A DNA stretch of 64,000 nt from Candidatus Sericytochromatia bacterium (GCA_035286125.1 JAYKIS010000053.1:11210-75209), one strand, 5' to 3'; shown: positions 11,325-64,000, numbered from the stretch's first letter. The notes: generated by a model not told the origin, from the sequence alone. Translations and numbers: made by a program.

Positions 11325-11331
11325 GCCGCGT

Positions 11332-19966: not shown

Positions 19967-19984
19967 GTCGGAACGTGTGCGATG

Positions 19985-20008
19985 GCCTGTCGCCCCGGGG
20001 CGACAGGC
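19985..20008 (+). terminator. 10-bp hairpin downstream of pilA
   Basis: gcctgtcgcc-ccgg-ggcgacaggc, 19 nt after the pilA stop. There is no strong T tract. Confidence 0.45.
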
Positions 20009-20039
20009 TATCGCGGTGCCTGAAGGTGAAGCAGCGATC

Positions 20040-22274: not shown

Positions 22275-22301
22275 CATGGCCATGATGGGTGGTACAAACG
22301 G

Positions 22302-23252: not shown

Positions 23253-23253
23253 C

Positions 23254-25049: not shown

Positions 25050-25052
25050 GCC

Positions 25053-26334: not shown

Positions 26335-27728
26335 GAAGCCGGACCCGAAGCATCCTGGGCCTGCTCGCGGCGGTGCTGACCGTCCCGGGCGCGATGCAAC
26401 CCGCGTACGCGCAGGCGTCCGGCAGCGATGTCCGCGCCGTCGGCGATCGCTCCCTGGGTGTGGAACGCACGCGCCTGATCCAGAACCCGACGCTGGTCAC
26501 GCTCAGCTTGGCCAATGTCGACGTCCGGCAGATCCTGGAGACCATGGGCCGCAAGGGCGGCATGAACCTGCTCATCGACGACTCCGTCCAAGGCAAGGTG
26601 ACCATCTCCCTCAAGGCCGTTCCCCTCGAGGAGGCCCTGGGGCTGGTCATGAAGATGCAGGACCTGGAGGCGCGCCGTGTCGGTTCGACCCTGCTCATCG
26701 CGACACGCGAGGTCTTCGCGAAGAAGAAGTTCACGGGCATGCAGACTGTCCTGTTCCGCATCGACAACAGCAAGGTCACGGACCTCGAGCCGCGCATCAA
26801 GCAAGCGCTGGCCCAAGGTGACGAGAAGGCGGGCAACGAGACCGTCCGCATCCTCAGCGACGAGCGCACCAACAGCCTGATCATCACGGCTTCGGAAGAC
26901 ACGCTGGATCGGGCCAAGGCCCTCATCCAGGCGCTGGACATCCCGACGCCCCAGGTCCTCATCGAGGTCAAGATGATCGAGGTCTCCTCGCGCGTCAGCG
27001 AGCAACTCGGGCTCAACTACGGCTTCGGCGGGGCCAAGTTCGGCGCGTCGTTCAACAACAGCAACCCCAACACGACGGCCGGCGGCGCGGGCAACCAGGC
27101 GGGCAACCCGGCCACCACGAACGGTGGCACGGCCATCACGTTCCACGCCCTCGACAACCTGACAGCCAACTTCAACGCGCGACTGGACGCCGCCATCCAG
27201 AACAACAACGCCACGGTGCTTGCCAACCCCAAGGTGGCCGCCCAGGACAACAAGAAGGCGACCATCACGATCGTCAACAAGTTCCCCGTCACCAACGTCA
27301 CGATCACGCCCAATGGCTTTGCGACCACCCAGATCAGCTTCCAGGAAGCCGGCCAGATTCTCAACATCACGCCGCGTATCGACACCAAGGGTTTCGTGAC
27401 ACTGGAGCTGGCCCCCGAGATCTCGGCCAAGACCGGCGATGTCATCGTCAATGGCAATGCGGTGCCCATCATCGACTCCCGCAAGGTGGAGACCACGATG
27501 CGGGTCAAGGACGGCGAGAGCATCGTCATCGGCGGCCTGAAGCGCACGGACGTGACGAAGAGCGTCGTCAAGATTCCGTTGCTTGGCGACATCCCCTTGC
27601 TGGGCGCGTTCTTCCAGACGACCGTCGACTCGAGAGCCGAGTCGGAAATCATCATTGTCGTCACGCCCAAGATCACGACGCGGCTCGCCGGAAGCCAGGA
27701 GGCCCTGCCCGGTATCGGCGGCAACTGA
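26331..27728 (+). CDS. pilQ: type IV pilus secretin PilQ (short form)
   Basis: 465 aa. Signal peptide, Secretin_N-like repeats and the secretin core (VIGGLKRTDVTKSVVKIPLLGDIPLLGAFF). No AMIN-type N-terminal domains are evident. Confidence 0.85.
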   Translation: MRSRTRSILGLLAAVLTVPGAMQPAYAQASGSDVRAVGDRSLGVERTRLIQNPTLVTLSLANVDVRQILETMGRKGGMNLLIDDSVQGKVTISLKAVPLEEALGLVMKMQDLEARRVGSTLLIATREVFAKKKFTGMQTVLFRIDNSKVTDLEPRIKQALAQGDEKAGNETVRILSDERTNSLIITASEDTLDRAKALIQALDIPTPQVLIEVKMIEVSSRVSEQLGLNYGFGGAKFGASFNNSNPNTTAGGAGNQAGNPATTNGGTAITFHALDNLTANFNARLDAAIQNNNATVLANPKVAAQDNKKATITIVNKFPVTNVTITPNGFATTQISFQEAGQILNITPRIDTKGFVTLELAPEISAKTGDVIVNGNAVPIIDSRKVETTMRVKDGESIVIGGLKRTDVTKSVVKIPLLGDIPLLGAFFQTTVDSRAESEIIIVVTPKITTRLAGSQEALPGIGGN

Positions 27729-32252: not shown

Positions 32253-32505
32253 GTCCGAAGCATGGCGGCCCGCAGCCCGTGGGGCTTGCCCAGGGGAACC
32301 GAAGATCATCGGTCACCCCCGGGACCCGAGAGCCGGACGGGGAACCCGCGGCACCCGTTCACATCCGCGTACCGTTGCTCCCTTCCGGGCCTGGCGGGGT
32401 TGGCGGCGGAACGCCGCGCGGGGCCGTCCGGCCCCGGATCACGAGGAATTCCATCTTACGCCATGCACGCATGGCCCACAAGACGGAATGCTAGAATCGA
32501 GGCCG

Positions 32506-36428: not shown

Positions 36429-37727
36429 TTGCTCGACATCAAGCTGATCCGCCAGGAGCCCGATACCGTCCGCACGGCCCTTCGCCATCGCGGCGACGAC
36501 CCCGCCAAGGTCGACAGGCTGCTCGACCTGGACACCGCCTTTCGCACGCTGCAGGCACGCATCGACACGCTTCGCCAGGAGCGCAACACCAGGAGCAAGG
36601 CCATCGGTGCCATCCGCACGGGCAAGGCCGAGGGCGACGCCGAGGCCCTGCAGGCCGAGGTCCGAACGCTGGGTGAAACTCTGACCAACCTCGAGGCCGA
36701 GTTGGCCGCGAATCAACATGCCCGGCTCGATCCTGCAGAGGGACTGCTGTATCAGATTCCGAACCTGCCCGATGCGTCCGTTCCCGTAGGCCAGACGGAG
36801 GACGACAACGTCGAAGTGCGTCGCTGGGGCACGCCACCGGCCTTTGCCCACGCCGCGGAACCGCACGAGGAGATCGGCGAGCGGCTGGGCCTGCTGGCGA
36901 CGGAAGAGGCCGCGCGGCTTGCCGGTTCGCGGTTCGTCCTGCTCAAGGGCCAGGGAGCGCGCCTCGAACGTGCCCTGCTCAACTTCATGCTCGACATGCA
37001 CCTCGCGCATGGCTATACCGAGGTCCTGCCTCCGACCCTCGCCAATGCCGACACGCTGACAGCCAACGGCAACCTGCCCAAGTTCCACGACCAGCTGTTC
37101 CAGATCACCGACTGGCCGCTGTATCTCATCCCGACGGCCGAAGTCCCGCTGACCAACATGCACCGGGGCCAGATCCTGGATGCAGGCCAACTGCCCATGC
37201 ACCTGACGGCCGGGACCTCGTGCTTCCGTTCCGAGGCGGGTGCGGCCGGCCGGGATACCAAGGGCATGATCCGGGTGCACGAGTTCCGCAAGGTCGAGCT
37301 GGTCAAGCTGGTGGCTCCCGAGCAGGGGCTCGAGGCGCTCGAGGGCATGGTCGCCGATGCCGAACGGGTCCTGCAGACCCTGGGCCTTCCCTATCGTGTG
37401 GTCCAGCTCTGCACGGCCGACCTGGGCTTCAACAGCGCCATCACCTACGACCTCGAGGTCTGGTTCCCGAGCCAGGGCAAGTACCGGGAAATCAGTTCCT
37501 GCTCGCTTTGCACCGACTTCCAGACCCGCAGGGGCCAGACTCGCTACCGGGATGGCGAGGCCATCCGTCATCCTTACAGCCTGAACGGCTCGGGCGTGGC
37601 CGTCGGCCGATGCCTTGCCGCGATCCTCGAGAACGGGCTGCAGGCAGACGGCACAGTCCGGGTCCCGGATGCCCTCGTGCCCTACACGGGCGGCGTCTCT
37701 GTCCTCGGGCGGCCCCGCACGGTTTAA
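36429..37727 (+). CDS. serS: seryl-tRNA synthetase
   Basis: 432 aa with a TTG start. MLDIKLIRQEPD, an N-terminal coiled-coil arm and class II motifs (FRSEAGAAGRDTKGMIRVHEF, NGSGVAVGRCLAAILEN). Confidence 0.95.
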   Translation: MLDIKLIRQEPDTVRTALRHRGDDPAKVDRLLDLDTAFRTLQARIDTLRQERNTRSKAIGAIRTGKAEGDAEALQAEVRTLGETLTNLEAELAANQHARLDPAEGLLYQIPNLPDASVPVGQTEDDNVEVRRWGTPPAFAHAAEPHEEIGERLGLLATEEAARLAGSRFVLLKGQGARLERALLNFMLDMHLAHGYTEVLPPTLANADTLTANGNLPKFHDQLFQITDWPLYLIPTAEVPLTNMHRGQILDAGQLPMHLTAGTSCFRSEAGAAGRDTKGMIRVHEFRKVELVKLVAPEQGLEALEGMVADAERVLQTLGLPYRVVQLCTADLGFNSAITYDLEVWFPSQGKYREISSCSLCTDFQTRRGQTRYRDGEAIRHPYSLNGSGVAVGRCLAAILENGLQADGTVRVPDALVPYTGGVSVLGRPRTV

Positions 37728-37788: not shown

Positions 37789-38397
37789 GTGACTGCCGAA
37801 ACAACGGCCCAGAACCCGCAGGCCATCACCGCCCAACCCCCGGCCCAGACACCGGCGCAGCCTCCCAACGCCTTTCAGCATCCACGATTGGCAGACCTGC
37901 TGCGCAGGGGCCAGCAGGCAGGGGGCGCGGGCATGGTGCTCGTGCAGAGCCTCTACGATCTGGTCCACCCGCAGGACACGATCGTGGCCTGCTACTACTC
38001 CTTCGACATGGGTTCGGGCGGGAGTGGTGCCGATGCCAACAACTTCTATTCTATCGACGTGGTGCTGGTGACCAGCGCCTACTTCATCAACCTCGCGCTG
38101 TTCCCCAAGACGCATCATCTGCGCAAGCGCAAGATCCACACGATCACGGATGTCCAGGTCAAGTACGACCCCCCGCCGCCGGATGAACTGCGGACCGTAC
38201 AACCGGGCAAGTTCGTGCCGTCGAACATCTCGATCCTGCTCGTGTTCGCCGATGAGCGCGGCCAGACGGTGGAGACGTGGGCGATGGAGTCCACGGCACC
38301 CGATCAGGTGCGCAACCTTTTCGACATCTCGCGCTTCGCCCAGAAGTGCGTCGGCTACCCCTTGGCCAACGTGGCCCGGGGCGGCGGAACGGTCTGA
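37789..38397 (+). CDS. hypothetical protein (no recognised family), first gene of the pilT-flp unit
   Basis: Lies in ORF 37615..38397; the probable start is GTG 37789. A Q/P/A-rich N-terminus is followed by a globular region. The stop lies 12 nt before pilT. Confidence 0.5.
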   Translation: MTAETTAQNPQAITAQPPAQTPAQPPNAFQHPRLADLLRRGQQAGGAGMVLVQSLYDLVHPQDTIVACYYSFDMGSGGSGADANNFYSIDVVLVTSAYFINLALFPKTHHLRKRKIHTITDVQVKYDPPPPDELRTVQPGKFVPSNISILLVFADERGQTVETWAMESTAPDQVRNLFDISRFAQKCVGYPLANVARGGGTV

Positions 38398-38409
38398 GGC
38401 TGCTGACGC

Positions 38410-39510
38410 GTGAATATTCTCGACTTCCTGCGGAACGCGGTCCAGAAGCGGGCCTCGGACATCCACATCAAGGTGGGCAGTCCTCCTATCCTGCGCATCG
38501 ACGGCCGCATCGTGCCGACGGAATACAAGGCCCTGACACCAGCCGACACCCGCCAGGCCATGTATTCGCTGATGAGCGCGGACCAGCGCCAGCACTTCGA
38601 GCAGGCGCGTGAGCTGGACATCTCGCTGACCATCGAGGGCCTGTCCCGATTCCGGGTCAACGTCTACTTCGAGCAGGGCAACATCGGCGCAGCCATGCGC
38701 GTCATCCCGATCAAGACGCCCACGGTGGACGCCCTGGACCTGCCGCCGGTCATCAAGAAGCTGGCTCTGGAACGCCAGGGGCTGATCCTGTGCACGGGCC
38801 CCACGGGCTCGGGCAAGTCGACGACGCTGACGGCGATGCTCGAGTTCGTCAACACGACCAAGGACGTCCACATCATCACGGTCGAGGACCCGGTCGAGTT
38901 CGTCTACACGAGCAAGAAGTCGGTCATCACCCAGCGCGAGGTCGGGCAGGACACCATTTCCTTCCCGAACGCCATCAAGTACGCCCTGCGGCAGGACCCG
39001 GACGTCATCCTGATTGGCGAGATGCGCGACCAGGAAACGATCATGGCGGCCGTCAAAGCGGCAGAGACCGGGCACCTCGTGTTGTCCACCCTGCACACGA
39101 CGGACGCCGTCCAGACCCTGATCCGCGTCATCAGCACCTTCGACCCTCACGAGCAGGACGGCATCCGCCTGCAACTCTCCCAGATCCTGCGCGGCTCCAT
39201 CTCGCAGCGCCTGATCCCCCGGGCAAGCGGGCAAGGGCGCGTGGCCGCCATCGAGGTTCTCGTCTCGACCCCGACTGTCGTCGACCTGATCTCCAAGAAC
39301 GAGATCGATGGCCTCTACACCGTGCTGAACCAGGGTGGCATGGAGGGCATGCAATCCATGAACCAGGCGTTGTTCAACCTGTACCAGGACGACCTCATCA
39401 CCCTGGACGATGCCCTGTCCTACTCCGAGTCGCCCAACGAGTTGCAGCGGATGATGCGCGGCGCCTACCACGGCTCCGGCAGTTCCTTCCAGGCAGGCCT
39501 CACAGGCTGA
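38410..39510 (+). CDS. pilT: PilT/PilU-family type IV pilus retraction-type ATPase
   Basis: 366 aa with a GTG start. ASDIHIKVGSPPILRIDG, Walker A GPTGSGKSTT, Asp box, Walker B ILIGEMRD and His box STLHT. The canonical AIRNLIRE motif is not conserved (TVVDLISKNE). Confidence 0.85.
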   Translation: MNILDFLRNAVQKRASDIHIKVGSPPILRIDGRIVPTEYKALTPADTRQAMYSLMSADQRQHFEQARELDISLTIEGLSRFRVNVYFEQGNIGAAMRVIPIKTPTVDALDLPPVIKKLALERQGLILCTGPTGSGKSTTLTAMLEFVNTTKDVHIITVEDPVEFVYTSKKSVITQREVGQDTISFPNAIKYALRQDPDVILIGEMRDQETIMAAVKAAETGHLVLSTLHTTDAVQTLIRVISTFDPHEQDGIRLQLSQILRGSISQRLIPRASGQGRVAAIEVLVSTPTVVDLISKNEIDGLYTVLNQGGMEGMQSMNQALFNLYQDDLITLDDALSYSESPNELQRMMRGAYHGSGSSFQAGLTG

Positions 39511-40082
39511 TGCGCAGCAGTCTCATTCTTCTGGTGGCCGGCCTCGGCCTCACGGGCTGCGGGCTGCCCATCCCGTTCGTCAACTTCTCGGCAAAACTGG
39601 CCATCCGTTCGGTCGAGCCGGCTACCGTCACCGTCAGCTATGCCAAGGGCACGAACAACGAGGTGACGGCCTCGTTCAAGAACCCCGTCGTCACCCTGGA
39701 AGGCGCCCCGGGCAGTCCGGGGGCGACCTTCAACGCCATGGAATTGTCGGCACTCGACCCTGCGAATTCGAACGTTGCGCTGGGCCTGTTCGGCGGAGCC
39801 CAGAAGGTATCGGTGCCCATCAGCCTTCGTGTCGCACCCTCGACGCTGCGGGAGGACCCGCGCGCAGGCACCGTCAGTCCCGTCGGCCAGGATCAGCAGA
39901 AGCTGGTGCTGGGCCAAGGCAAGGCCGAACTGCCCATCGTTTCGAACGCCGTGCTCGAGTACGGCAAGACGAGAACCAACGGGCCCTTGACCGTGTCCGC
40001 GGTCCTGAAGGGAACGGACGACGCCATGTGGCCCGTGGCAGTCGAGGTGCTGGTGCCGGTGGCCTTTGCCGGCGGCAACTGA
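39510..40082 (+). CDS. lipoprotein of unknown function
   Basis: 190 aa (in-frame part of ORF 38790..40082). The ATG overlaps the pilT stop (TGATG). MRSSLILLVAGLGLTGC is a classic lipobox. Confidence 0.6.
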   Translation: MRSSLILLVAGLGLTGCGLPIPFVNFSAKLAIRSVEPATVTVSYAKGTNNEVTASFKNPVVTLEGAPGSPGATFNAMELSALDPANSNVALGLFGGAQKVSVPISLRVAPSTLREDPRAGTVSPVGQDQQKLVLGQGKAELPIVSNAVLEYGKTRTNGPLTVSAVLKGTDDAMWPVAVEVLVPVAFAGGN

Positions 40083-40085
40083 CGG

Positions 40086-40265
40086 ATGCAGCGTCCGGGC
40101 CTTGTCGGACGGCTGCTGCGTGAGGATGACGCGCAGGCCATGGTCGAATATGGCCTGATTGCCGCGGCCCTGACGATTGGGGTGGCTCTGGCGACGAAGC
40201 TGGTTCAGGCCGCACTCTCCCGGCAACTGCTCCAACACCACAAGGCCCTGTCCCAGGCCCCCTGA
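40086..40265 (+). CDS. flp: Flp/Fap-family pilin (59 aa, below the ORF-track size cutoff)
   Basis: My translation: MQRPGLVGRLLREDDAQAMVEYGLIAAALTIGVALATKLVQAALSRQLLQHHKALSQAP. It has the Flp motif (x-XXXX-EY followed by a hydrophobic helix), with Ala instead of Gly before QAMVEY. The start lies 3 nt after the lipoprotein stop. Confidence 0.7.
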   Translation: MQRPGLVGRLLREDDAQAMVEYGLIAAALTIGVALATKLVQAALSRQLLQHHKALSQAP

Positions 40266-40367
40266 ACCGAATTTTCAGCGCATTTTTTCCGACCCTTTAC
40301 CGAACGGGGGCGAGGTCGCCCGACAAGACCCGTAACCCCCGCCACCGGCACACGAGGAGAAGCGCCG

Positions 40368-40529
40368 ATGACCTTCCTTAAGACCCTGGTACACGACGAA
40401 GCCGGCCAGAGCATGGTCGAGTACGGCATCATTGTCGCCGTCATCGCCGCCGTGTGCGTGGGCGGCTTCCGGGCCATCGGCGACCAGAGCAACAAGGCCC
40501 TCGACACGCTGCTCAAGAACATGAAGTAG
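40368..40529 (+). CDS. flp: Flp/Fap-family pilin (53 aa, below the ORF-track size cutoff)
   Basis: My translation: MTFLKTLVHDEAGQSMVEYGIIVAVIAAVCVGGFRAIGDQSNKALDTLLKNMK. It has a canonical G/QSMVEYG Flp processing motif, with GAGGAGA 8 nt upstream of the ATG. Confidence 0.8.
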   Translation: MTFLKTLVHDEAGQSMVEYGIIVAVIAAVCVGGFRAIGDQSNKALDTLLKNMK

Positions 40530-40540
40530 GAGGAACGACC

Positions 40541-40783
40541 ATGCAAGCTCCTGCAGTCGCAGCCAACCCCTTGATCCCCAGCGTCTCCCCCTGGGGCGCG
40601 CCCGTTGCGCAGCCGGCACAGCCGAAGCCCATGGCGGGAGATACCTTCGTCCCGTCCGCGGCCCCGGCGGCCGCGCCGGTCAAGGTCGGTGTCATGAGCT
40701 TCCTGACCAACTTCTGGGACCAATTCGTCGGTCCGCTTTTCAGCAAGGCCGCGACCTTCCTGATGGGCCTCTTCGGCAAGTAG
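40541..40783 (+). CDS. small Pro/Ala-rich protein with hydrophobic/amphipathic C-terminal helix
   Basis: 80 aa (in-frame part of ORF 40454..40783). The ATG at 40541 is preceded by AGGAGGA. The C-terminus is VGVMSFLTNFWDQFVGPLFSKAATFLMGLFGK. Confidence 0.5.
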   Translation: MQAPAVAANPLIPSVSPWGAPVAQPAQPKPMAGDTFVPSAAPAAAPVKVGVMSFLTNFWDQFVGPLFSKAATFLMGLFGK

Positions 40784-40865: not shown

Positions 40866-41417
40866 ATGGGCCTGCGCGAAATAGCCAAGTTGGGCAACCC
40901 GGTCCTGCGGCGAGTAGCTGAACCCGTCTCGCTCGAGGAGCTGGCCGATCCGGAAACCCAGCGCCTGATCGACGACATGATCGAGACGATGCGTGCCGCG
41001 GCAGGCATCGGCCTCGCCGCCCCTCAGGTCTCGGTCCCCAAGCAGATCCAGATCATCGAGATGGCGGCAAACCCGCGCTACCCGTCCGCCCCGACATGGC
41101 CCCTGACGGTGCTCGTGAATCCCGAGATCACCTTTCTGACGGACGAACGGATCGAGGTCTGGGAGGGATGTCTTTCGGTCGACGGCCTGCGTGGCAAGGT
41201 CCGCCGCGTCCGACGCATCGCGATCCGCTTCCTCGATCGCCACGGCCAGGAGCAGCACCTCGAGCTCGAGGACTTTCCTGCAGTCGTGGCGCAACACGAG
41301 ACGGACCATCTCGTGGGCAAGGTCTTCCTCGACCGCATGGAGGACATGAGCAGCCTCGCCCAGATTGCAGAGTGGGAGCGTTACTGGCTGGCCGACCCGG
41401 CCCTTGTCACGGAATGA
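40866..41417 (+). CDS. def: peptide deformylase
   Basis: 183 aa. GIGLAAPQV, EGCLS and HETDHL motifs. Confidence 0.95.
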   Translation: MGLREIAKLGNPVLRRVAEPVSLEELADPETQRLIDDMIETMRAAAGIGLAAPQVSVPKQIQIIEMAANPRYPSAPTWPLTVLVNPEITFLTDERIEVWEGCLSVDGLRGKVRRVRRIAIRFLDRHGQEQHLELEDFPAVVAQHETDHLVGKVFLDRMEDMSSLAQIAEWERYWLADPALVTE

Positions 41418-42232
41418 TCCTGGATGAAGGGGCGATGCCCCGCCGCAGACTGGGGCGCACGGCCGTCGACATTTCCCTGCTGGGTTTCGGGACCGGAACG
41501 ACGGCCAGCAATGGCCATCCGAGCGCGCAGAGCGCGATCCACCCGACGGAGTTGGGCGGCCTGCTGCGGCTTGGGCTGGATGTGGGCATCACGTGGTGGG
41601 ATACGTCCGACGACTACCAGACCTACGCGCATGTCCGCGAAGGCCTCGTCGGCACACCGCGAGAGCTGGTCCAGATCGCCAGCAAGACGCATGCGGCCAC
41701 GGCCGGGGAGGCGCACGCCAGGCTGGATGAGGCACTGGCCGACATGGGCCTTTCGTGGCTGGACGTCTACTTTCTGCACGATGTCGACGACGTGGACGAA
41801 CTCGACCGTCGCCTGCCCGCTATGGCCGCCCTTCGCCAACGCCGGGAGCGCGGGGATATCCGGGCGATTGCCCTGTCGACCCACAACATCGACACGCTCG
41901 AACGCCTGCTGGTCCATCCGGAGTACGCGGACCTCGACGTGGTGATGACGAACTTCAATCGCTTTGGCGACCACATGGATGCCGGCCTCGAGGACTACAG
42001 CCGGGCACTCGAGGCGCATCACGCAGCCGGACGGGGCGTGCTGGTCATGAAAGCCGTCGGGGAAGGCCGCCTCGCGCACGTCGCGCGGGAGAGCATCCAG
42101 TGGAACGCGACACGACCTTTTGTCGATGGCGTCCTTGTGGGCATGGCCTCGGGCGACCAGGTGCTGGCCAATGCCGCCGCCGTCATCCAGGCAAGTAAGG
42201 CAGAACCTCGGAGAATCGGCCCCGGTTTGTGA
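41414..42232 (+). CDS. aldo/keto reductase family oxidoreductase
   Basis: Lies in ORF 41096..42232. The ATG at 41414 overlaps the def stop (ATGA). WWDTSDDYQTY, IASKTH and LDVYFLHDVD fit the AKR Asp/Tyr/Lys/His contexts. Confidence 0.75.
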   Translation: MILDEGAMPRRRLGRTAVDISLLGFGTGTTASNGHPSAQSAIHPTELGGLLRLGLDVGITWWDTSDDYQTYAHVREGLVGTPRELVQIASKTHAATAGEAHARLDEALADMGLSWLDVYFLHDVDDVDELDRRLPAMAALRQRRERGDIRAIALSTHNIDTLERLLVHPEYADLDVVMTNFNRFGDHMDAGLEDYSRALEAHHAAGRGVLVMKAVGEGRLAHVARESIQWNATRPFVDGVLVGMASGDQVLANAAAVIQASKAEPRRIGPGL

Positions 42233-42309
42233 ATTCCGCGACGACTTGGGGAATGCGTCTCCACAGGTATCGCTGGCAAACATCACATTCCCGAAGGGAG
42301 GCGCTCCCA

Positions 42310-43404
42310 ATGGCTCCTCGTCGTATCAAGGTGGCGGCCCTGTCGGCCGTGCTCGCCCAAGGCTTCATGGTTACCCAGGCAACCGCGGCGCCTGACCTCT
42401 GGCCGGACTATCGGCTCGCCGGCCAGGAGCGCGTAAGCGAGTTCAAGGCGGGTCGCGAAATCGTGGACCGACTGGGCGATGGTTCCGAAGTGGCCGGCAC
42501 GCGCAAGACCGTCCGGCGCAACGAACGGGTCGAACCGCTTCGTGAAAAGGACCCGACCCAGAATCTGGAGTCCTTCGAGGAGGTGCCGGCCTCCCCGGTG
42601 TTCAGCACCAAGGTGGTGGGCCGCATTCACTCGACGATGTCGGCCACGAAGTTCGACAAGTTCCGGTACGCGTGGACCGAGACGCCGTACAAGGACTACA
42701 CCGTCAAGAAGTGGGAGCAGCGCGACGAGTTCTGGAAGGATGTCCCGTACCAGCGCCGCATCCTTGCCGAGTGGAACGACCCGGCGTCGGGCCGCGCGAT
42801 GCGGTTCGAGGGAGCGAACTCCCGCTACACCGCTCAGGAATCGGCCGTGACGGCCTGGCAGGGCGCAGCGGATCCCAAGGTCTACGTGGGAGCCGGTGTC
42901 GACAAGTCGGCGCGAACGGGTCCGTTCTTCGTGTCGTCCCGGACCGAAGTCAAGGAAGTGGCCCGCAAGTCCCTCGCGTCCGTTCAGGCCGCCTCGTCAG
43001 GTGCTGGCAGCGCGAGCGGTCTGGGTGCCACCCGGGTGTTCCAGGGCGACTCCGCCAAGGGCATCAGCCAGGCCCAGAAGGCCGCTGCCGGTCAGATTGC
43101 GGCGACCTTGGGTTCCCGAACCGTCAAGGCCTCACAGGGTGCGAATCCGGTCAGCGTCAAGGCGATTGCCTCCATTCAGGCGGCCAAGAGCAAGCTTGAG
43201 GCTCTGCCCGTTCGGTCCGCTGTCGCCGTCCAGATCAAGTCGGCCCTTGAGCTGTTGGCGCGTCCCGACGCCACCGACGCTCAGATCAAGGCGGCCCTGA
43301 ACAAGGCGAAGAAGAATGCTTGGTCGAAGAACAATGCCAAGGCTATCGAGGCAGCGACGCAGAGAATTCTCAAGGCACGGAAATCAGCCCGCAACGGCGG
43401 TTGA
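42310..43404 (+). CDS. secreted protein of unknown function, paralog A
   Basis: Lies in ORF 42229..43404. The ATG at 42310 follows GGGAGG. A signal peptide ends ...TQATA/APDLWPDYRL. A globular N-domain is followed by an A/S/G/K-rich tail. No family was recognised. Confidence 0.6.
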   Translation: MAPRRIKVAALSAVLAQGFMVTQATAAPDLWPDYRLAGQERVSEFKAGREIVDRLGDGSEVAGTRKTVRRNERVEPLREKDPTQNLESFEEVPASPVFSTKVVGRIHSTMSATKFDKFRYAWTETPYKDYTVKKWEQRDEFWKDVPYQRRILAEWNDPASGRAMRFEGANSRYTAQESAVTAWQGAADPKVYVGAGVDKSARTGPFFVSSRTEVKEVARKSLASVQAASSGAGSASGLGATRVFQGDSAKGISQAQKAAAGQIAATLGSRTVKASQGANPVSVKAIASIQAAKSKLEALPVRSAVAVQIKSALELLARPDATDAQIKAALNKAKKNAWSKNNAKAIEAATQRILKARKSARNGG

Positions 43405-43518: not shown

Positions 43519-44733
43519 TTGCGACGCATCGCCTGCCCCGCCGCGCTTGCCGCCGGCACCTTGCTGCTCACAGCCCCGCAAGCATGGGCCGCACCCGACC
43601 TATGGCCGGACTATCGCCTTGTCGGCACCGAACGGGTCCAGTCCTTCCAGCCCGGCAGCATCGAGACGCGGCGCGTGGAGACGGGGGCCGAGATTCCGGG
43701 GTCACGGCAGGCCATGCGGCGAAATGAACGCGACGTGCCCATGCGGGTGTCCGCCCCGACGGAGGCCAAGTCGGAAACCTTCGAGGTCAACGATGCACCC
43801 ACCTATTCCACCCGCATCCAGGGCCGCCTCCAACTGACCATGAGCCACACCAAGGTCACGATCAACCGCCTCGACTGGACCGAGACTCCCTACGTGGACT
43901 ACACGGTCCACAAGTGGGAGGCGTGGGATGCCTTCAAGCGGCAGAACACCTACGGGCGCAAGCGCGTCGCAACATGGACGGACCCGGTCTCCGGCCGCTC
44001 GATGTCCTTTGCCGGTCCGGAAACAATCTACGGGCAGGTCGACGACGACCGGACCTGGCCACCCGTCCCGCGTGAGGACCAGCCGGTCGAGGTCGGCAGG
44101 GGCATCCTGAAGACCGGAAAGGTCGGTCCCACAATCGTCGGGACCCGCATCGACGTCGCCGAGGCCAGCCGGCGCAGCCTGGCCTCGGTAGGGGCCTCGG
44201 GTGCCGGACAGATGGCCCGAGGTGCCTATGGCTTCCGCGGGGACCAGGGCAACAGCATCAGCCAGGCCCGGAGTGCAAGCGGACAAGCCGTGGCGGCCAG
44301 TCTGGGCAGCCGCGCCATCAAGGCCTCCGCATCGGCCAAGGGCATGGCGCCTGCCTCGGGACAAGCCGTCGCGTTCGGGGCAGCCAAGGTTCAGGTGGCC
44401 TTGGCTGCTGCCGCCCCGGCTGTTCTCGGGAGCGTGCGTCCCGCGGGCCTGGGACGTCCGTCCGGCTACAGCGTCCCGGCGCTGAATGTGTGGGTCAACG
44501 GTGTCCAGGGCAACCAGCCCGAGGTCGTCCAGTGGCGGGAGCTGGCACGGCTCGCCATCGGCGTCTCCGATACCACCACACGGTCCGAGCTCGTCCAGGC
44601 CCTTGAGGACAACGTCAACACCGCGAAGGACCTGCGTGAGGCAGCCGAGGCCATCGGAAGGATCTCGAACGCGGCGACCAAGGCCAAGGCTCAGGCGGCT
44701 CTGGATCAGATCCGGGCCGGATTGTTGCCCTGA
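43519..44733 (+). CDS. secreted protein of unknown function, paralog B
   Basis: 404 aa with a TTG start after GGGAGAG. A signal peptide ends ...PQAWA/APDLWPDYRL. It shares WTETPY.DYTV.KWE, RRNER, R(K/R)SLASV and LGSR.(V/I)KAS blocks with paralog A. Confidence 0.6.
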   Translation: MRRIACPAALAAGTLLLTAPQAWAAPDLWPDYRLVGTERVQSFQPGSIETRRVETGAEIPGSRQAMRRNERDVPMRVSAPTEAKSETFEVNDAPTYSTRIQGRLQLTMSHTKVTINRLDWTETPYVDYTVHKWEAWDAFKRQNTYGRKRVATWTDPVSGRSMSFAGPETIYGQVDDDRTWPPVPREDQPVEVGRGILKTGKVGPTIVGTRIDVAEASRRSLASVGASGAGQMARGAYGFRGDQGNSISQARSASGQAVAASLGSRAIKASASAKGMAPASGQAVAFGAAKVQVALAAAAPAVLGSVRPAGLGRPSGYSVPALNVWVNGVQGNQPEVVQWRELARLAIGVSDTTTRSELVQALEDNVNTAKDLREAAEAIGRISNAATKAKAQAALDQIRAGLLP

Positions 44734-57815: not shown

Positions 57816-59374
57816 CAGAACGCCCTTCCGACTCCGAGCCCCAGACCCTGCACGACATCCTGGGCGCCACTGCTGCGCAGCACGGCCTGAAGACGCCACG
57901 TGAGCATCAGATCGATCGGCAGGCCTGCTGGCGACGGCCAGGCCGCACCCAACTCGCCCCCCGCCCCGAAGGCCGGCCCCGTCGAGACCGCGAGGGCAAG
58001 GCCCACCTGGCTGCGGGCCAAAGCCCAGGTGCTGAAAGGACCGAGGGGGGCCCGGATGATGGCGGATGGCCCCGCCCCCAGGAACGTGCGACCCGCCTCG
58101 GGATCGGTGGTGCCCGAGGCCAACTGGAGACCGATGTCGGAACCCAACCCGACGCCCCACGTCACGGAACCCGTGGCCGACGGCTGCCAAAGGACATCGG
58201 CGGCGACCCCGAACTGGGTCAGGGAGCCCTCGGTACCGGGGAACAAGCGTCCCGTCCCGCGCGCCTCGAGCGCCCAACCCGGGACCGCCAGCGACAGGCC
58301 GGCATCAAGGGCGCCCGGCATGTAGAAACTGATATCCCGGAAGGTGCGTCCGTCTCCCGTTCCGATCGCAAGGCCCGTGACCGCCCATCCCCGACCCAGA
58401 CGGCGTGACCAATCGAGAGCCGGAAGGGTCCAGCGCGCACCTGCCACCGGAGCCGATGTCCGCGCCACCTGAGGGGTCGCCGCGGGCGAGGGTGTCCGCG
58501 CAGGAGCAGGCGTCGGCGCCGGCTCGTTTTCGACGGGCGTCGGCGTCGGCATCGGGTCGGGCACCACCAGCCAAGGCGGCGGCGTCATCGTGCCTGCAGG
58601 CGGACGGGTCGGCACGGGCACGGGCGTCACGACAGGTCGCGGCGTCGGAAGCGGACGCGGCGTGACCGCAGGCGCAGGGGTACGCGTGGCCGCAGGCTCG
58701 GGGGTCGGTTCCTCGACCGGCGGCTCGGGCGTCGATCGGGGGCGCTGTTCGTCGGCGAACCGAGCCGCCACGCCCGGATCCACCAGCGCCGCCGCGCGAT
58801 AGACCCAGATCAAGGCATCCTGGCGTGTCAGGTCCTCTGTCGGTCGGACGGGGCCACCCGAGGTCACGATGAGCCAGTCGTTAGCCGCCCGTTGCAAGGC
58901 CTCCTGGCCGGGAAAGCCCCGGATGTCCGTGAGCACGATGCGTCGCTCGGGCGACGGCGGCAACGGAGCCGCACGCAGGCGCAAGACCTTGTCGAGTGCA
59001 ACGAGGAAGGCCCCTCTCGAGATGGGTTGGGTCCCCTGGAAGTTGGCGCCATCGGCCTCGAGCAGGTCGCGGGCCGTGACCCGGTTGACGGCGGCCAAGG
59101 CCCAGAAACCGGGAGGCACGTCCGCCCAGGCCGTCACCATGAAGGCGTGGTCCGACGGATCGAGGAACGACGCCAGGATCCACGCCGCATCGTAGCGCGA
59201 GACCCGTGCACGATTGGTGGCGCTACCGCCCCAGACACCCGGCAGGAAGCCACGATCGATCAGAAAGGCGCCTGTGGATACGGCATCCTGCGCCATGGCG
59301 GCAGGGGCCGTGGGAAACAGGCAGCCGAGGGCGAGCGCCATCGCCAGGGACTGACGGACCTTCACGGCTCCCAC
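57815..59374 (-). CDS. SLH-domain outer-membrane protein (OmpM/Slp-like: SLH repeats, Pro-rich linker, C-terminal beta-barrel-like region)
   Basis: 519 aa. Signal peptide ends ...APAAMAQ. SLH-like repeats include WADVPPGFWALAAVNRV...ISRGAFLVAL and LTDIRGFPGQEALQRAAND...LTRQDALIWVYRAA. A P/T/V/A-rich linker follows. The C-terminal region has alternating beta-like segments and ends GVGRAF. Confidence 0.7.
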   Translation of the reverse strand: MGAVKVRQSLAMALALGCLFPTAPAAMAQDAVSTGAFLIDRGFLPGVWGGSATNRARVSRYDAAWILASFLDPSDHAFMVTAWADVPPGFWALAAVNRVTARDLLEADGANFQGTQPISRGAFLVALDKVLRLRAAPLPPSPERRIVLTDIRGFPGQEALQRAANDWLIVTSGGPVRPTEDLTRQDALIWVYRAAALVDPGVAARFADEQRPRSTPEPPVEEPTPEPAATRTPAPAVTPRPLPTPRPVVTPVPVPTRPPAGTMTPPPWLVVPDPMPTPTPVENEPAPTPAPARTPSPAATPQVARTSAPVAGARWTLPALDWSRRLGRGWAVTGLAIGTGDGRTFRDISFYMPGALDAGLSLAVPGWALEARGTGRLFPGTEGSLTQFGVAADVLWQPSATGSVTWGVGLGSDIGLQLASGTTDPEAGRTFLGAGPSAIIRAPLGPFSTWALARSQVGLALAVSTGPAFGAGGELGAAWPSPAGLPIDLMLTWRLQAVLRSSGAQDVVQGLGLGVGRAF

Positions 59375-59703
59375 CTCAGTGTCACGCCCTCCTCGAGACC
59401 CAGCCCGCGCGCCTGGCCGGCCGGCAACTCCAGAACCTGCCGGGCCTTGGGGACGATCGGTGAAAACCGCCCGGGCGGCAGGTCGTGCAAGACCCTAAGG
59501 ATACGGAAGTCCCGCGAAAGGAACAACACATCGAGGTTCAGGCGCGGCCAGAAGGTGTGGATACTGTTGCAAGGCACCAGCAGCATGCCTTCGCCGGGTT
59601 CGAAGCGATCCCGGAAGCCCAGGCCCCTCATCCGCGCCCACGGTGTCCGGGCCACCTCGAGACGCTCGACCACGGGCCGGTCCCCCAGCCAGAGGCCGGG
59701 CAC
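59362..59703 (-). CDS. DUF192-family protein
   Basis: 113 aa. ARTPWARMRGLGFR...GMLLVPCNSIHTFWPRLNLDVLFL...VLELPAG follows the DUF192 (COG1430) pattern. Confidence 0.6.
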   Translation of the reverse strand: MPGLWLGDRPVVERLEVARTPWARMRGLGFRDRFEPGEGMLLVPCNSIHTFWPRLNLDVLFLSRDFRILRVLHDLPPGRFSPIVPKARQVLELPAGQARGLGLEEGVTLRWEP

Positions 59704-59704
59704 G

Positions 59705-60622
59705 TCAGGCCTTCCCCGTCAGGATGCCGAGGACGAGCGGGCCAAAGATGATGATGAAAATGACCGGGAAGATCAGGAAGGTGATCGGGAAGACCAGCTT
59801 GAGCGGGGCCTTCTGAGCCAATTCCTGCGCACGTTGCCAGCGGGCCTCGCGGATGATGCCGCTCTGGATGCGCAGGGTCCGGGCAATCGATGAGCCCATC
59901 GTCTCGGCCTGGACCATCGCGATGGCCACGCTGTTGAGCTCCTTCAGGCCCACGCGTCGCCCCAGTTCCCGCAGCGCCTCGCCACGACTGCGCCCCAGCT
60001 GCATCTGGCGAAGCGTCTTCTCCATTTCGTCCCGCAGCGGATGGGGCCGCATCCGCTCGCTGATCTTCTGCATCGCCGCCGTCAGGGACATGCCCGCCTC
60101 AACGCACGTGGTCAGCAGGTCCAGGGTGGTGGGGAGTTGCCTAAGGATGGCCTGCTGGCGCAACTCAACGGCCTGGTCGAGGCGCGATGCGGGCAAACGG
60201 TAGCCTGCGACACCAGCCAGCAGGAAGCCTACGGCAGCCCCGAGGGGGGGCAATTCGAAGGCCGCGCTGTTGACCAGCAAGAAGACTACGGGCAGCAGGG
60301 CAGCGTAGATCCATTGGCGTGCGACGAAGCGTGCCGGTGTCGTGTGGTCGTCCCCCGCCATCAGGAGGCGAGCCTGCAGGGCCGTGGCGCGATCGTCGGA
60401 AAGACGCTCGACGGCAAAGGGCTTGAGGCGCTCCTCGAGCACCCGGAGCGGTGCCGTCTTGGCACGGGGAGGCCGCGGCGCAGCCGTGCCGGGCCTGGCC
60501 ACGCGCTTGAGCCGGGCCTGCACCCGCGAGCGGTTCTGCGGCTTGGAGAAGGCCACGACACCCAGCAAGGTCGCACCGAAGACGGCACCGAAGACCAACA
60601 GGAAAATCAGGGCGACCGGCAT
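59705..60622 (-). CDS. tadC: Tad/Flp pilus assembly inner-membrane protein TadC
   Basis: Lies in ORF 59705..60685; the start is ATG 60622. T2SSF-type domain (LPTTLDLLTTCVEAGMSLTAAMQKI...) flanked by TM helices. Confidence 0.75.
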   Translation of the reverse strand: MPVALIFLLVFGAVFGATLLGVVAFSKPQNRSRVQARLKRVARPGTAAPRPPRAKTAPLRVLEERLKPFAVERLSDDRATALQARLLMAGDDHTTPARFVARQWIYAALLPVVFLLVNSAAFELPPLGAAVGFLLAGVAGYRLPASRLDQAVELRQQAILRQLPTTLDLLTTCVEAGMSLTAAMQKISERMRPHPLRDEMEKTLRQMQLGRSRGEALRELGRRVGLKELNSVAIAMVQAETMGSSIARTLRIQSGIIREARWQRAQELAQKAPLKLVFPITFLIFPVIFIIIFGPLVLGILTGKA

Positions 60623-61488
60623 CAGACGTCCAACGCGACAATCTTGCGGACGACGAGGCTGCCTGCCGTGACCATGGCGACGCACAGGGCCACGAGCACC
60701 CAGCCCAGCGGCTCGGTGAAAAGCACACCCATGCGATCCGGGGCAATCAGCAGCAACACGAAGTACAGGCCTACGGGGAGGAAGGAGAGAATGGCCCCCG
60801 AGAAGCGACCCTGCGTCGTCAAGGTGCGGATCTGGCCCTGGATGCGGCGCCGCTCGCGCATCGTCGACGCCAGATTATCGAGAATCTCGCCCAGATTGCC
60901 GCCCGTCTGGCGCTGGATGACAAGGGCAGTGCAAAGGATATCGAGGTCGTCGTGATTCATGCGTTCGGACCAGTTCTGCAGGGCCTGATCGAAGGAGACG
61001 CCCATCGTCAGTTCCTGCATGACCTCGCGCACCTCGGCACCCATCGGGTCCGTGAACTCCTGGGTCACGAGGTCCAGGGCCTGCTGCACGGAGAAGCTCG
61101 ACCTCACGGCATTCGCGAGGACGCCCACGGCATCGGGCAACTGCTCCTCGAACTCCTTCACGTATCTTTGCCACTGCATGTCGAGCCAGCGATTGGTCAG
61201 GGACCACACGACGCCGGCGGCCAGCGCAGCAAGGAAGATGCGACTGGCAAGGCCGTCGCCCAGCACGAAGCCCAGCAGGGCGGCAGCACCCGTCAGACCT
61301 GCCTGCTGGCGCGCAAACCGTTCGGTGGACAAGGGATTGCGCGTTCGCGCAAGGGCCTTGCGCGTCCGACCCAGGTAGCCCTCGAGCGCCGCCGACAGGC
61401 GTTGCTCGTAGCGGCGGGCCACCACAAAGGCCAGCATCCCCGCCGACACGAAGGCCAGCAGGAAGACCAGCAGGAGACGAGGGTCCAT
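60622..61488 (-). CDS. tadB: Tad/Flp pilus assembly inner-membrane protein TadB
   Basis: 288 aa. T2SSF-type domain (LPDAVGVLANAVRSSFSVQQALDLV...) flanked by TM helices. Start and stop overlap both neighbours. Confidence 0.75.
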   Translation of the reverse strand: MDPRLLLVFLLAFVSAGMLAFVVARRYEQRLSAALEGYLGRTRKALARTRNPLSTERFARQQAGLTGAAALLGFVLGDGLASRIFLAALAAGVVWSLTNRWLDMQWQRYVKEFEEQLPDAVGVLANAVRSSFSVQQALDLVTQEFTDPMGAEVREVMQELTMGVSFDQALQNWSERMNHDDLDILCTALVIQRQTGGNLGEILDNLASTMRERRRIQGQIRTLTTQGRFSGAILSFLPVGLYFVLLLIAPDRMGVLFTEPLGWVLVALCVAMVTAGSLVVRKIVALDV

Positions 61489-63587
61489 CAGGAGCCGACG
61501 CCTGCCCGTTCGAAGACCTCGGCGAACTGGGGCCGGAGGCCCGATGCCTTGAAGGCGCCCTGGACCTTGCCACGGGCATCGACGCCCGTCTGCTCGTAGC
61601 TGTAGAGGTCCTGGAGCGTCAGCGTCTCGCCCTCAAGACCCGTGACCTCGGTGATGCGCGTGATCTTGCGTGAGCCATCGGCAAGCCGGGAGACCTGCAC
61701 CACGACCTGAAGGGCGCTGGCGATCTGCTCGCGGATGGCCCGGACAGGCAGGTCCATGCCTGCCATCAGCACCATGGTCTCGATACGGGCCATGGCATCC
61801 CTCGGAGAGTTGGCGTGGCCCGTGGCAAGCGATCCATCGTGGCCCGTGTTCATGGCCTGGAGCATGTCGAGGGCTTCGCCTCCGCGCACCTCACCGACGA
61901 CAATGCGATCCGGCCGCATGCGCAGCGAGTTCCGGACCAGATCCCGGATGGGAACGGCCCCGACTCCCTCGAGGTTTGCTGGCCGGGCCTCGAGCGGCAC
62001 AACATGGGACTGGACCAGTTGCAGTTCGGCGGCGTCCTCGATGGTGACGATGCGTTCCTCGTCCGGAATGAATGACGACAGCACGTTGAGCAGGGTGGTC
62101 TTGCCCGAGCCCGTCCCCCCGCTGATGAAGACATTCAGGCGCGCCCGGACGCATTGCCGCAGGAAACCGGCCATCTCGGGCGTCAGGGATCCGTACTGGA
62201 CCAGATGCTCCATGGTCAGGCGCCGCAAAGGAAATTTCCGGATGGTCAGGGTCGCGCCCCGCAAGGCCAGGGGGGGGATGATGACATTGACGCGGCTGCC
62301 GTCGGGCAATCGGGCGTCGCACATCGGACTGCTCTCGTCGACCCGTCGACCCAGAGGCGCGACGATGCGGTCGATGACGACGCGCAGCTGGGTCTCGTCC
62401 GTGAAGCGATCATGAACCTGCTGCAAGCGCCCCTCGCGCTCGACGAAAATCCGTCCCGGGCCATTGACCATGACCTCGCTGATGGCCGGGTCGGCCAGAA
62501 AACGCTCGAGTGGCCCATAGCCGACGGCCTCGTCCGTCACATCCCTCGCGAGGGCGCCACGCTCTTCGCGCCCCATGGCGGCGGCATCGGGCATGTCCTC
62601 GATCAGATCGGCCACCGTGCGCTGGACCTGACGGCGGATCTCCTGACGGTGCTGGGGGTCGGAGAGACGGTCGAGGCCGACGTCCATCCGCTTGAGTTCC
62701 TCGACGAGCATGCGGTGCAGACGTTGGCGCAGCTCCGCGTGGCCTTCACGCCAGGCCGTCTCGACGGGCACCAGGGCCGTGGAGGCCTCGGCGGCAGCTT
62801 CGCTTCCGCCACGCACGGCAGGACGCGCCGCCGTCTTGCGCGCCAGCGTGGCCCAATCCCGCGGGGACGGGGCCTGGACGGCCTGCGCCAAGGCCAGCAA
62901 GGCCTTGCCGAAGGGACTCGACGGGGGCGTGGCAGCCGCCAGCAGGGGGACGCCACGGTTGAGCGCCGTGACCACGGCCGGCTCGAAAGGCACCGCCTGG
63001 GCAAGGTCCAGACCCAGCTCCTGCGCCACGTCTCGGGGCGTGATGTCCTGGACGAGGCCAGCCCGATTGACGACGAGCATCAGGCGGTCGAGGACCGCGT
63101 GCTGGGTCCGAAGGTGCTCCAGCAAGTGCCGCGTGGCCGTCAGAGAGGGGATGTCCGGCGTCACGACAAGGACGACGGCGGAAGCGAGGTCAAGCCAGGC
63201 CAACTGGTGCTCGGCCAGCCCCACGCCCGACAGGTCCACGACAAGGTGGGGCGCTGCCACCTCGCGCACCCGCGAGGCCAGGGCCCCAGGCTCGAGAACC
63301 CCACCCCAACCGATGGGCGGCGCAGGCAGCAGATCCAGTCCCGAGGCGTGACGCACGACCGCCTCAGCCAGCGGGTTTCCGTGGCGCAGGCATTCGCCCC
63401 AGTGGGGATGAGCGCCCTGGATGTCGAAGGCATCCGCCTGAAAGCCCCCAGTCAGTTCATCAGCATCCCACAGCCAGACGGGTTGGCGATTTCGCCGCAG
63501 CAGGGCAAGCGCAAGGTTCGCCGCGAGGATGCTGCGACCGGTCCCGCCCCTGGCGGACAGCATCACCGTCAGCCGAGGAGCCGTCAT
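61488..63587 (-). CDS. cpaF: fused CpaE/TadZ-like ParA/MinD-type ATPase domain plus CpaF/TadA secretion ATPase
   Basis: Lies in ORF 61488..63722; the start is ATG 63587 (MTAPRLTVMLSARGGTGRS), about 699 aa. The N-half resembles MinD/CpaE (LVVDLS..., VVLVVTPDIPSLTATRHLL). The C-half is CpaF (ISEVMVNGP, GGTGSGKTTLLNVL, IVVGEVRGGEALDMLQAMNTGHDGSLATGHAN). Confidence 0.8.
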   Translation of the reverse strand: MTAPRLTVMLSARGGTGRSILAANLALALLRRNRQPVWLWDADELTGGFQADAFDIQGAHPHWGECLRHGNPLAEAVVRHASGLDLLPAPPIGWGGVLEPGALASRVREVAAPHLVVDLSGVGLAEHQLAWLDLASAVVLVVTPDIPSLTATRHLLEHLRTQHAVLDRLMLVVNRAGLVQDITPRDVAQELGLDLAQAVPFEPAVVTALNRGVPLLAAATPPSSPFGKALLALAQAVQAPSPRDWATLARKTAARPAVRGGSEAAAEASTALVPVETAWREGHAELRQRLHRMLVEELKRMDVGLDRLSDPQHRQEIRRQVQRTVADLIEDMPDAAAMGREERGALARDVTDEAVGYGPLERFLADPAISEVMVNGPGRIFVEREGRLQQVHDRFTDETQLRVVIDRIVAPLGRRVDESSPMCDARLPDGSRVNVIIPPLALRGATLTIRKFPLRRLTMEHLVQYGSLTPEMAGFLRQCVRARLNVFISGGTGSGKTTLLNVLSSFIPDEERIVTIEDAAELQLVQSHVVPLEARPANLEGVGAVPIRDLVRNSLRMRPDRIVVGEVRGGEALDMLQAMNTGHDGSLATGHANSPRDAMARIETMVLMAGMDLPVRAIREQIASALQVVVQVSRLADGSRKITRITEVTGLEGETLTLQDLYSYEQTGVDARGKVQGAFKASGLRPQFAEVFERAGVGS

Positions 63588-64000
63588 TTGCCCTTGCCGT
63601 AGCCCTTCTCGGACATGGCCTCGCCATCCTTGAAAAGCGTCGGCGTGACGAGGAAGACCAGTTCTCCCTCCTCCTCCTCCTGCTGGGTCGAGGTGAACAA
63701 GGCACCGACACCAGGCAACCACCCGAGGAGCGGAACTCGGCTGGTCACGGAGCGCACGGTCCGGCGCTTGAGACCCGCCAGCACGATTTCCTGGCCCGGC
63801 CGGACGGCAACCTGCGTCTCGGCCATACGCGTGGCGATGGCCGGGATGTTGAAGTTGCCGGTCTGCACGCCGTTCAGGCGATCGATACTCGAGACCTCGG
63901 GCTTGATGCGCAGCAGGATTTCCTCGCCCTCGACAACGGGCGTGACCTTAAGCCCCACACCGAAGGGCTTCCAGTCGACGGCGACGGTATTGGGGGTCTG
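63584..64000 (-). CDS. cpaC: Tad/Flp pilus secretin CpaC/RcpA, C-terminal part (5' end beyond the window)
   Basis: The ORF 63584..63958 translation is ...IPAIATRMAETQVAVRPGQEIVLAGLKRRTVRSVTSRVPLLGWLPGVGALFTS... (secretin C-terminal signature). The frame stays open to the window end, and its stop overlaps the downstream ATG (ATGA). Confidence 0.7.
   Translation of the reverse strand, partial: QTPNTVAVDWKPFGVGLKVTPVVEGEEILLRIKPEVSSIDRLNGVQTGNFNIPAIATRMAETQVAVRPGQEIVLAGLKRRTVRSVTSRVPLLGWLPGVGALFTSTQQEEEEGELVFLVTPTLFKDGEAMSEKGYGKGK

Follow-up and report, generated by a model that had tools for sequence, protein, structure and literature searches.

Which pilus does a PilT-family ATPase serve when its gene stands directly ahead of genes for Flp pilins, the subunits of Tad (type IVc) pili? 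The question is raised by a 64,000-nucleotide (nt) stretch of DNA from a Candidatus Sericytochromatia bacterium (GCA_035286125.1, JAYKIS010000053.1:11210-75209), hereafter the window, which is high in GC (about 67%) and whose proteins find their best matches in metagenome-assembled genomes labelled Candidatus Sericytochromatia or "Tanganyikabacteria". Candidatus Sericytochromatia are non-photosynthetic relatives of cyanobacteria. The original prediction, made from the window alone, had described a chain of six genes, i.e., a hypothetical protein (hyp), the ATPase, a lipoprotein (lipo), two Flp pilins (flp1 and flp2, here flpA and flpB) and a small open reading frame (ORF), and all six were found at the predicted positions on the plus strand (Table 1). 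A survey across the superfamily recorded no PilT orthologue in Tad systems (PMC6668835), and our full-text literature searches turned up no tad locus reported to contain a PilT-family gene and nothing on the pili of Sericytochromatia. Comparison of the window with related loci points to a new arrangement, a predicted Tad locus headed by an ATPase that resembles PilT2, the second PilT homologue of cyanobacteria.

The adjacency is not private to the window genome, and its recurrence in related loci rules out a chance, single-genome event. The succession of ATPase gene (pilT2), lipoprotein gene and flp was found again in all 12 related loci that reach far enough downstream (compared loci carry numbers prefixed with L), and in the subclade whose ATPases are at least 75% identical lipo and flpA always come next. 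One subclade has a complete tad locus directly after pilT2 on the same strand (L017/L111, L006 and L008), the contiguity extending through tadC in L111 and, in L017, L006 and L008, as far as the compared DNA reaches (to cpaC). L010 has the same gene order up to the third tadE-like gene, where the compared DNA ends, apart from an insert of about 2 kb that separates flpA and flpB. The order in these relatives is pilT2-lipo-flpA-flpB-tadV-tadE/G-cpaB-cpaC-tadZ::cpaF-tadB-tadC; tadV is followed by three TadE/TadG-like genes, a gene of 150 amino acids (aa), rcpC/cpaB and the secretin, and the secretin by tadZ::cpaF, a 229-aa gene, tadB and tadC.

The unit at the head of the locus is kept tightly together. 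From the ATPase stop codon to the lipobox cysteine there are 48-100 nt in the window and in 10 of the 12 related loci, the exceptions being L010 (197 nt) and L013, a UBA8530 relative with a 1-kb insert (1688-2686) that holds a 332-aa ORF with paired CxxC motifs. The pilT2-lipo-flpA synteny has been maintained in the face of deep divergence, with about 30% identity left in the lipoprotein and about 60% in SerS, encoded upstream. It is also intact in the window lineage and in L004, L005 and L018, where the tad loci break after flpA or flpB; these three loci have no tad gene within 6 kb downstream of the unit. As a background set we reused 80 unrelated metagenomic TadZ::CpaF loci (931 kb) from a metagenome scan with the window TadZ::CpaF, and no PilT-family, hyp or lipo homologue occurred among them, so that a PilT-family gene is not generic clutter around tad loci. 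The comparison shows pilT2-lipo-flpA to be a conserved tight unit which was ancestrally continuous with a full tad locus.

The outgroup locus L126 helps to tell which of these genes belong to the tad locus proper. Its ATPase is 67% identical to that of the window and is not adjacent to the tad locus, which lies elsewhere in the genome and is opened by a lipoprotein homologue (28% identity, E 8e-12) and an flpA-type gene. Given that both open this tad locus without an adjacent pilT2, lipo and flpA are true tad head genes, and in this lineage the tad locus begins with the lipoprotein gene. Lipoprotein orthologues stand between pilT2 and flpA in 11 loci; the protein had no family or structure match (Pfam, NCBIfam and a profile search of PDB sequences), and its single-sequence model, with a predicted local distance difference test score (pLDDT) of 33, was unusable.

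Both flp ORFs encode an Flp leader and a (G/A)-xxxx-EY motif followed by a hydrophobic helix, with a mature length of about 41-44 aa. The processing motif, the helix and the position of orthologues ahead of tadV and further tad genes bear out their earlier assignment as Flp pilins; against PF04964 the two stay below the gathering cut-off of 32.2 bits (flpA 19.8, flpB 30.8). The motif reads A-QAMV-EY in flpA, with Gly at -1 in a 99%-identical relative, and G-QSMV-EY in flpB. As a subfamily, FlpA is marked by Ala or Gly at -1 and by a conserved basic C-terminal tail, HHKALSQAP, and its gene is kept right after the lipoprotein gene in relatives and in L126. Orthologues of flpB in L111, L113 and L126 are on record with PF04964 matches, and tadV follows them directly in L006, L008, L010, L017/L111 and L113. 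FlpB is likely the major Tad pilin.

In the window itself the tad locus is split. The original prediction had placed Tad machinery genes about 19 kb away, and they were indeed located at 59.3-64 kb on the minus strand, where a tail of the order cpaC-tadZ::cpaF-tadB-tadC-DUF192-SLH-LmeA-acyltransferase, followed by a divergent 444-aa gene, is collinear with L113. This tail is inverted and lies 15.6 kb from the small ORF, a position that fits a single large rearrangement; an inversion probably split the locus, and its breakpoint after flpB would fall between flpB and tadV. The genes tadV...tadC ended about 19 kb away and inverted, and pilT2-lipo-flpA-flpB stayed together as a tight unit. The genes for TadV and the TadE/F-type pseudopilins are outside the window and are expected beyond position 64000. 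A separation is also seen in the genome holding L113, where no pilT2 is present within 4 kb of flpB-tadV...tadC. Overlaps of 1-4 nt join genes inside the window tad machinery, the same style as at the pilT2/lipo junction, where the lipoprotein ATG overlaps the pilT stop codon by 1 nt (TGATG).

The tadZ/cpaE::cpaF fusion of this tail, with its start placed at MTAPRLTV, encodes 699 aa with a MinD/ParA-like domain and a TadA-type ATPase, and homologues of 700-780 aa combine ParA and T2SSE domains; by family, it is the predicted Tad assembly motor. The metagenome scan gave relatives of it at 64% identity or less only, and the fusion also occurs in hundreds of metagenomic Tad loci of several phyla, some labelled Omnitrophota. 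Near the tail, at 55078-56409 (plus strand), a predicted lipoprotein-like protein contains NFTMPMGN in four tandem copies; a homologue with 35% identity has the same position beside the L113 tad tail.

The ATPase is unambiguous as to family. Against TIGR01420 it scores 462 bits (cut-off 319), covering profile positions 2-343 of 343, and against PF00437 it reaches 2e-48; it has no N-terminal MshEN/GSPII domain and aligns end to end with solved PilT structures (345-375 bits). Its Walker A, Asp, Walker B and His boxes (GPTGSGKST, VEDPVEF, DVILIGEMRD and TGHLVLSTLHT) align with those of Geobacter and Aquifex PilT, so that by its motifs it is predicted to be a catalytically intact member of the PilT/PilU family. 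Scores of 303 bits to Pseudomonas aeruginosa PilT, 300 to PilU (9n32) and about 370 to Geobacter/Aquifex PilT rule out PilU orthology.

Canonical PilT is a different gene in these genomes. On the 5.18-Mb contig of L026, two PilT-family genes stand in tandem, of which the first has AIANLIRE and the second is orthologous to the window gene. A search with the former yielded a tight clade (72-89% identity) spanning Sericytochromatia, Vampirovibrionia/Melainabacteria and the oxygenic cyanobacterium Anthocerotibacter. Three assemblies that carry the flp-linked ATPase hold, on other contigs, a pilB-pilT-pilC operon with this canonical gene: JAYKJE01 (canonical locus L115, flp-linked locus L017), JAYKGV01 (L122 and L007, the latter with an ATPase 93% identical to the window's) and DATNQJ01 (L124 and L006). 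The canonical copy retains AIANLIRE and scores 389 bits against P. aeruginosa PilT vs 288 against PilU; the window ATPase is 45-48% identical to the canonical PilT of its relatives and 99% identical to a copy on contig VGJW01000005. A neighbour-joining tree rooted on PilB separates a canonical clade (bootstrap 100/100) from a paralogue clade (83/100), within which the tad-linked subclade is again firmly grouped (100/100). The ATPase thus belongs to an old second paralogue clade of Cyanobacteriota, PilT2-like and distinct from canonical type IVa PilT, as the original prediction had left to be determined. Since the adjacency recurs and the ATPase is not a plain type IVa PilT, two of the three grounds on which that prediction could have been dismissed do not hold.

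Members of the paralogue clade and the window protein have a common C-terminal RGAYHG signature. Proline-rich N-termini are found only in some more distant members (P0066 and P0079, 400-425 aa); the window ATPase has no such extension and begins MNILDFLRNAVQ. Cyanobacterial PilT2 is described as having a proline-rich N-terminus and an unknown function, with speculation that it is PilU-like (PMC12288463). The original prediction had also noted that an AIRNLIRE motif is missing; PilT conserves this motif and PilU lacks it (PMC6762196). The motif is indeed absent, its position reading VVDLISKN, but the loss is not special to a motor dedicated to Flp pili: it is degenerate throughout the paralogue clade, also in members without a nearby flp, and decays stepwise from AVRDYIAR via TVRDHIFK to TV(Q/A/V)DLI(F/S)K. 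Owing to this gradual, clade-wide decay we regard its loss as a trait of the clade and not as a mark of Flp linkage, and rule it out as a marker of an Flp-specific motor.

Upstream, the neighbourhood of pilT2 is even more widely kept. The order serS-hyp-pilT2 is present in every Sericytochromatia locus examined (ATPase identity 60-99%) except L026, which has the pilT tandem instead of serS-hyp, and in a more distant Cyanobacteriota genome serS directly abuts pilT2 with no hyp between. Orthologues of hyp (21-84% identity) occupy the same position in 14 loci, and the family is tiny, with 16 clusters at E<=1e-3 among 1.84 billion representatives. The protein had no match in Pfam, NCBIfam or PDB sequences, even with a 10-sequence profile, and a single-sequence AlphaFold2 (AF2) model (pLDDT 41) was unusable. 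Its N-terminus is rich in Pro, Gln and Ala, while some clade members have a Pro-rich extension on the ATPase itself. We consider hyp a candidate partner or regulator of the PilT2-clade ATPase, restricted to this lineage.

Based on this arrangement, we hypothesize a dedicated retraction motor for Flp pili. The genes pilT2, lipo and flpA would be co-transcribed, and a PilT2 hexamer would serve the Tad/Flp pilus by docking on the TadB/TadC platform, taking turns there with the assembly motor TadZ::CpaF and drawing Flp subunits back into the membrane, with hyp acting as a clade-specific partner or regulator. In such a Tad system one motor would extend the pilus and another retract it, a division found in type IVa and some type IVb pili. 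A functional link is favoured because the arrangement persists across deep divergence, because the unit survives breaks of the tad locus and because the 1-nt stop/start overlap matches the style inside the tad machinery, and the conserved arrangement hints that a retraction motor may have been acquired by a pilus type believed to have none of its own. We regard a direct coupling of PilT2 to the Tad/Flp pilus as quite possible, if somewhat short of probable; the full scheme, in which the Tad system recruited a dedicated PilT-family ATPase so that TadZ::CpaF drives extension and PilT2 retraction, is more tentative and, as a whole, rather unlikely. Attempts to read transcription units from the DNA were of little help: a promoter scan gave 0 promoter-like sites and terminator-like sites matched the shuffled expectation, both uninformative for a high-GC, non-model lineage; Rfam listed no riboswitch or known RNA in the pilT2-flp module, and the flpA-flpB spacer has a predicted fold only modestly more stable than that of shuffled sequences (z = -2).

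Several observations weigh against a motor dedicated to Flp pili. Caulobacter Tad pili retract by CpaF alone, a bifunctional motor (PMC11300603, PMC12019362), no PilT-Tad interaction is known in the literature, and cyanobacterial PilT2 is discussed only with respect to type IVa pili (PMC12288463). The paralogue clade and its serS-(hyp)-pilT2 order are also older and wider than the Tad linkage. On deeper branches the genes downstream of pilT2 are fliD, an RND pump or STAS+CheA; L126 has its tad locus apart from pilT2; L013 is interrupted between pilT2 and lipo, the only locus to be so; and in L026 canonical pilT and the paralogue stand in tandem, resembling pilT-pilU. Conserved order alone is, besides, no proof of a common function, because the unrelated serS is equally stably adjacent.

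Much of this would suit an accessory motor, PilU-like and confined to the type IVa pilus, beside whose old serS-hyp-pilT2 cluster the tad locus merely landed. At the PilC platform PilT2 would then still assist or modulate canonical PilT, as it would have done ancestrally, and the "cross-talk" that the original prediction had offered as its second option would amount at most to co-regulation of two appendages at the level of expression. That the clade predates the Tad adjacency and exists without it, the L026 tandem, the loss of AIRNLIRE as in PilU (PMC6762196), the PilU-like role suggested in review (PMC12288463) and a type IVa-like cluster within the same window all agree with such a motor, and serS is an example of how neutral synteny can last in the lineage. 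Yet the ATPase has no specific kinship to proteobacterial PilU by the bit scores given above, the tight lipo-flpA coupling outlasted repeated breaks of the tad locus, and PilT2 lies apart from pilB-pilT-pilC in the genomes checked; we deem this explanation a real possibility, albeit a doubtful one.

A role outside retraction for PilT2 and hyp, e.g., in signalling or another envelope process with the pilin genes as mere passengers of the promoter, seems to us improbable. It would account for a unique, invariant partner without a recognisable fold, for the variable genes downstream of pilT2 across the clade, STAS+CheA included, and for published cyanobacterial pilT2 mutants that retain pili and transformation ability. 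The catalytic boxes and full PilT architecture have nevertheless been kept, at 45-54% identity to bona fide PilTs, and our literature searches gave no PilT/PilU-family member with a role away from filaments. Finally, a plain canonical type IVa PilT orthologue that lies near flp genes by chance in one genome only, as the pipeline label "type IV pilus twitching motility protein PilT" might suggest, is already contradicted and hardly credible, given the separate canonical pilT in the pilB-pilT-pilC operon of relatives, the separation of the two clades in the tree, the absent AIRNLIRE and an flp adjacency kept in at least 12 loci. A small share of the probability goes to none of these four readings.

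Table 1 Genes of the pilT2-flp module, its flanks and the detached tad tail, with positions counted from the first letter of the window
Feature	Position	Strand	Remarks
serS, seryl-tRNA synthetase	36429..37727	+	Pfam Seryl_tRNA_N and tRNA-synt_2b; synteny anchor, not a functional part
hyp, 202 aa	37789..38397	+	GTG start; 61-nt gap after serS
PilT/PilU-family ATPase (pilT2), 366 aa	38410..39510	+	12-nt gap after hyp; assigned to PilT2-like paralogue clade
lipoprotein (lipo), 190 aa	39510..40082	+	lipobox LTGC (L-T-G-C)
flpA (flp1), Flp-type prepilin, distinct subfamily	40086..40265	+	3-nt gap after lipoprotein
flpB (flp2), canonical Flp prepilin	40368..40529	+	102-nt gap; strong Shine-Dalgarno GAGGAG
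small ORF, 80 aa, hydrophobic C-terminus	40541..40783	+	11-nt gap; at rearrangement breakpoint
def (context gene)	40866..41417		
DUF192 gene, tad locus tail	59362..59703	-	PF02643; same place after tadC in L113 and L126
tadC, platform protein	59705..60622	-	PF00482 T2SSF-like; 67% identical to L113 tadC; start MPVALIF
tadB, platform protein	60622..61488	-	PF00482; 68% identical to L113 tadB
tadZ/cpaE::cpaF fusion	61488..63587	-	NCBIfam TadA-family and MinD-like matches in one ORF
cpaC/rcpA secretin, C-terminal part	63584..64000	-	PF00263 Secretin; 55% identical to L113; runs off window end

The small ORF that closes the chain gave tblastn matches only in the closest relatives (L001, L002 and L007) and no family match in Pfam or NCBIfam. 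The same three loci are the only ones with counterparts of two tandem paralogues farther downstream (42229-43404 and 43519-44733, plus strand), about 42% identical to each other, apparently secreted and without a Pfam match. The type IVa-like cluster of the window (19481-27728, plus strand), on which the original prediction was silent, comprises a GspG/PilA-like pilin, PilD, PilM, PilN/O-like genes and a secretin, with an ABC-transporter ATPase wedged after the pilin and neither pilB nor pilC in the cluster; relatives have pilB-pilT-pilC at another place, after pheT and a Robl_LC7 (MglB-like) gene. A more distant relative (L029:9076-11549) has a PilT2-clade gene followed by a STAS-domain gene and a CheA-type kinase, an arrangement that hints at chemosensory coupling of this ATPase clade. 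Elsewhere in the window, a FliF ORF (9387-11345, minus strand) ends in a stretch resembling the FliG middle domain at its extreme C-terminus (residues 580-648), directly followed by flhA, and may be a FliF-FliG fusion or reflect an unusual gene order. A CRP-family regulator gene has its long open frame just downstream of, or overlapping, a bacterial small SRP RNA (32339-32425, minus strand; 58.5 bits).

A PilT-family gene conserved at the head of a tad locus offers a natural test case for two-motor type IVc pili, and it bears on an open question in cyanobacteria, namely the role of their widespread second PilT homologue. Were the proposed retraction motor real, this Tad system would have split motors, unlike every described one, and would provide the first functional clue to the cyanobacterial PilT2 clade and its private partner hyp. 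A linkage that is only positional would still be useful, as the annotated "PilT" would be recognised as a paralogue and the flp "operon" as the detached head of a rearranged tad locus.

Set against known systems, the ATPase equals canonical PilT in size, fold family and Walker A/B, Asp and His boxes, with the high scores to solved structures reported above, but it has lost AIRNLIRE, has diverged from the PilT of its own lineage and has another genomic home. With PilU, the accessory retraction ATPase of type IVa pili that depends on PilT, it has in common the TIGR01420 family, the absence of AIRNLIRE and its status as a paralogue beside canonical PilT (in tandem after pilT in L026); it is, however, no closer to PilU than to PilT (300 vs 303 bits) and stems from a separate duplication in the cyanobacterial lineage, usually not beside pilT, and Tad-linked. 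Cyanobacterial PilT2 (e.g., Synechocystis sll1533) is similar in being a second PilT homologue beside pilB-pilT1-pilC, a situation seen here in three relatives, and in the proline-rich N-terminus of some clade members, a likeness drawn from those members; the RGAYHG signature connects the proline-rich members with the window protein, which differs in having no proline-rich N-terminus, in being preceded by a separate hyp and in being followed by tad head genes. The BfpF-type ATPases of type IVb pili are a precedent for a PilT-family motor recruited into a non-IVa pilus cluster, albeit in another pilus class. Like the Tad systems of Caulobacter (Cpa) and Aggregatibacter (Tad), the system described here has Flp prepilins, TadZ and CpaF modules, TadB/TadC and a CpaC secretin, to which the relatives add TadV, TadE/F/G-like pseudopilins and RcpC. 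In described Tad systems, in contrast, PilT orthologues are missing and CpaF works in both directions (PMC6668835, PMC11300603), whereas the present locus has a PilT-family gene at its head and a TadZ::CpaF fusion, and its opening tad genes encode a novel lipoprotein and a second Flp subfamily.

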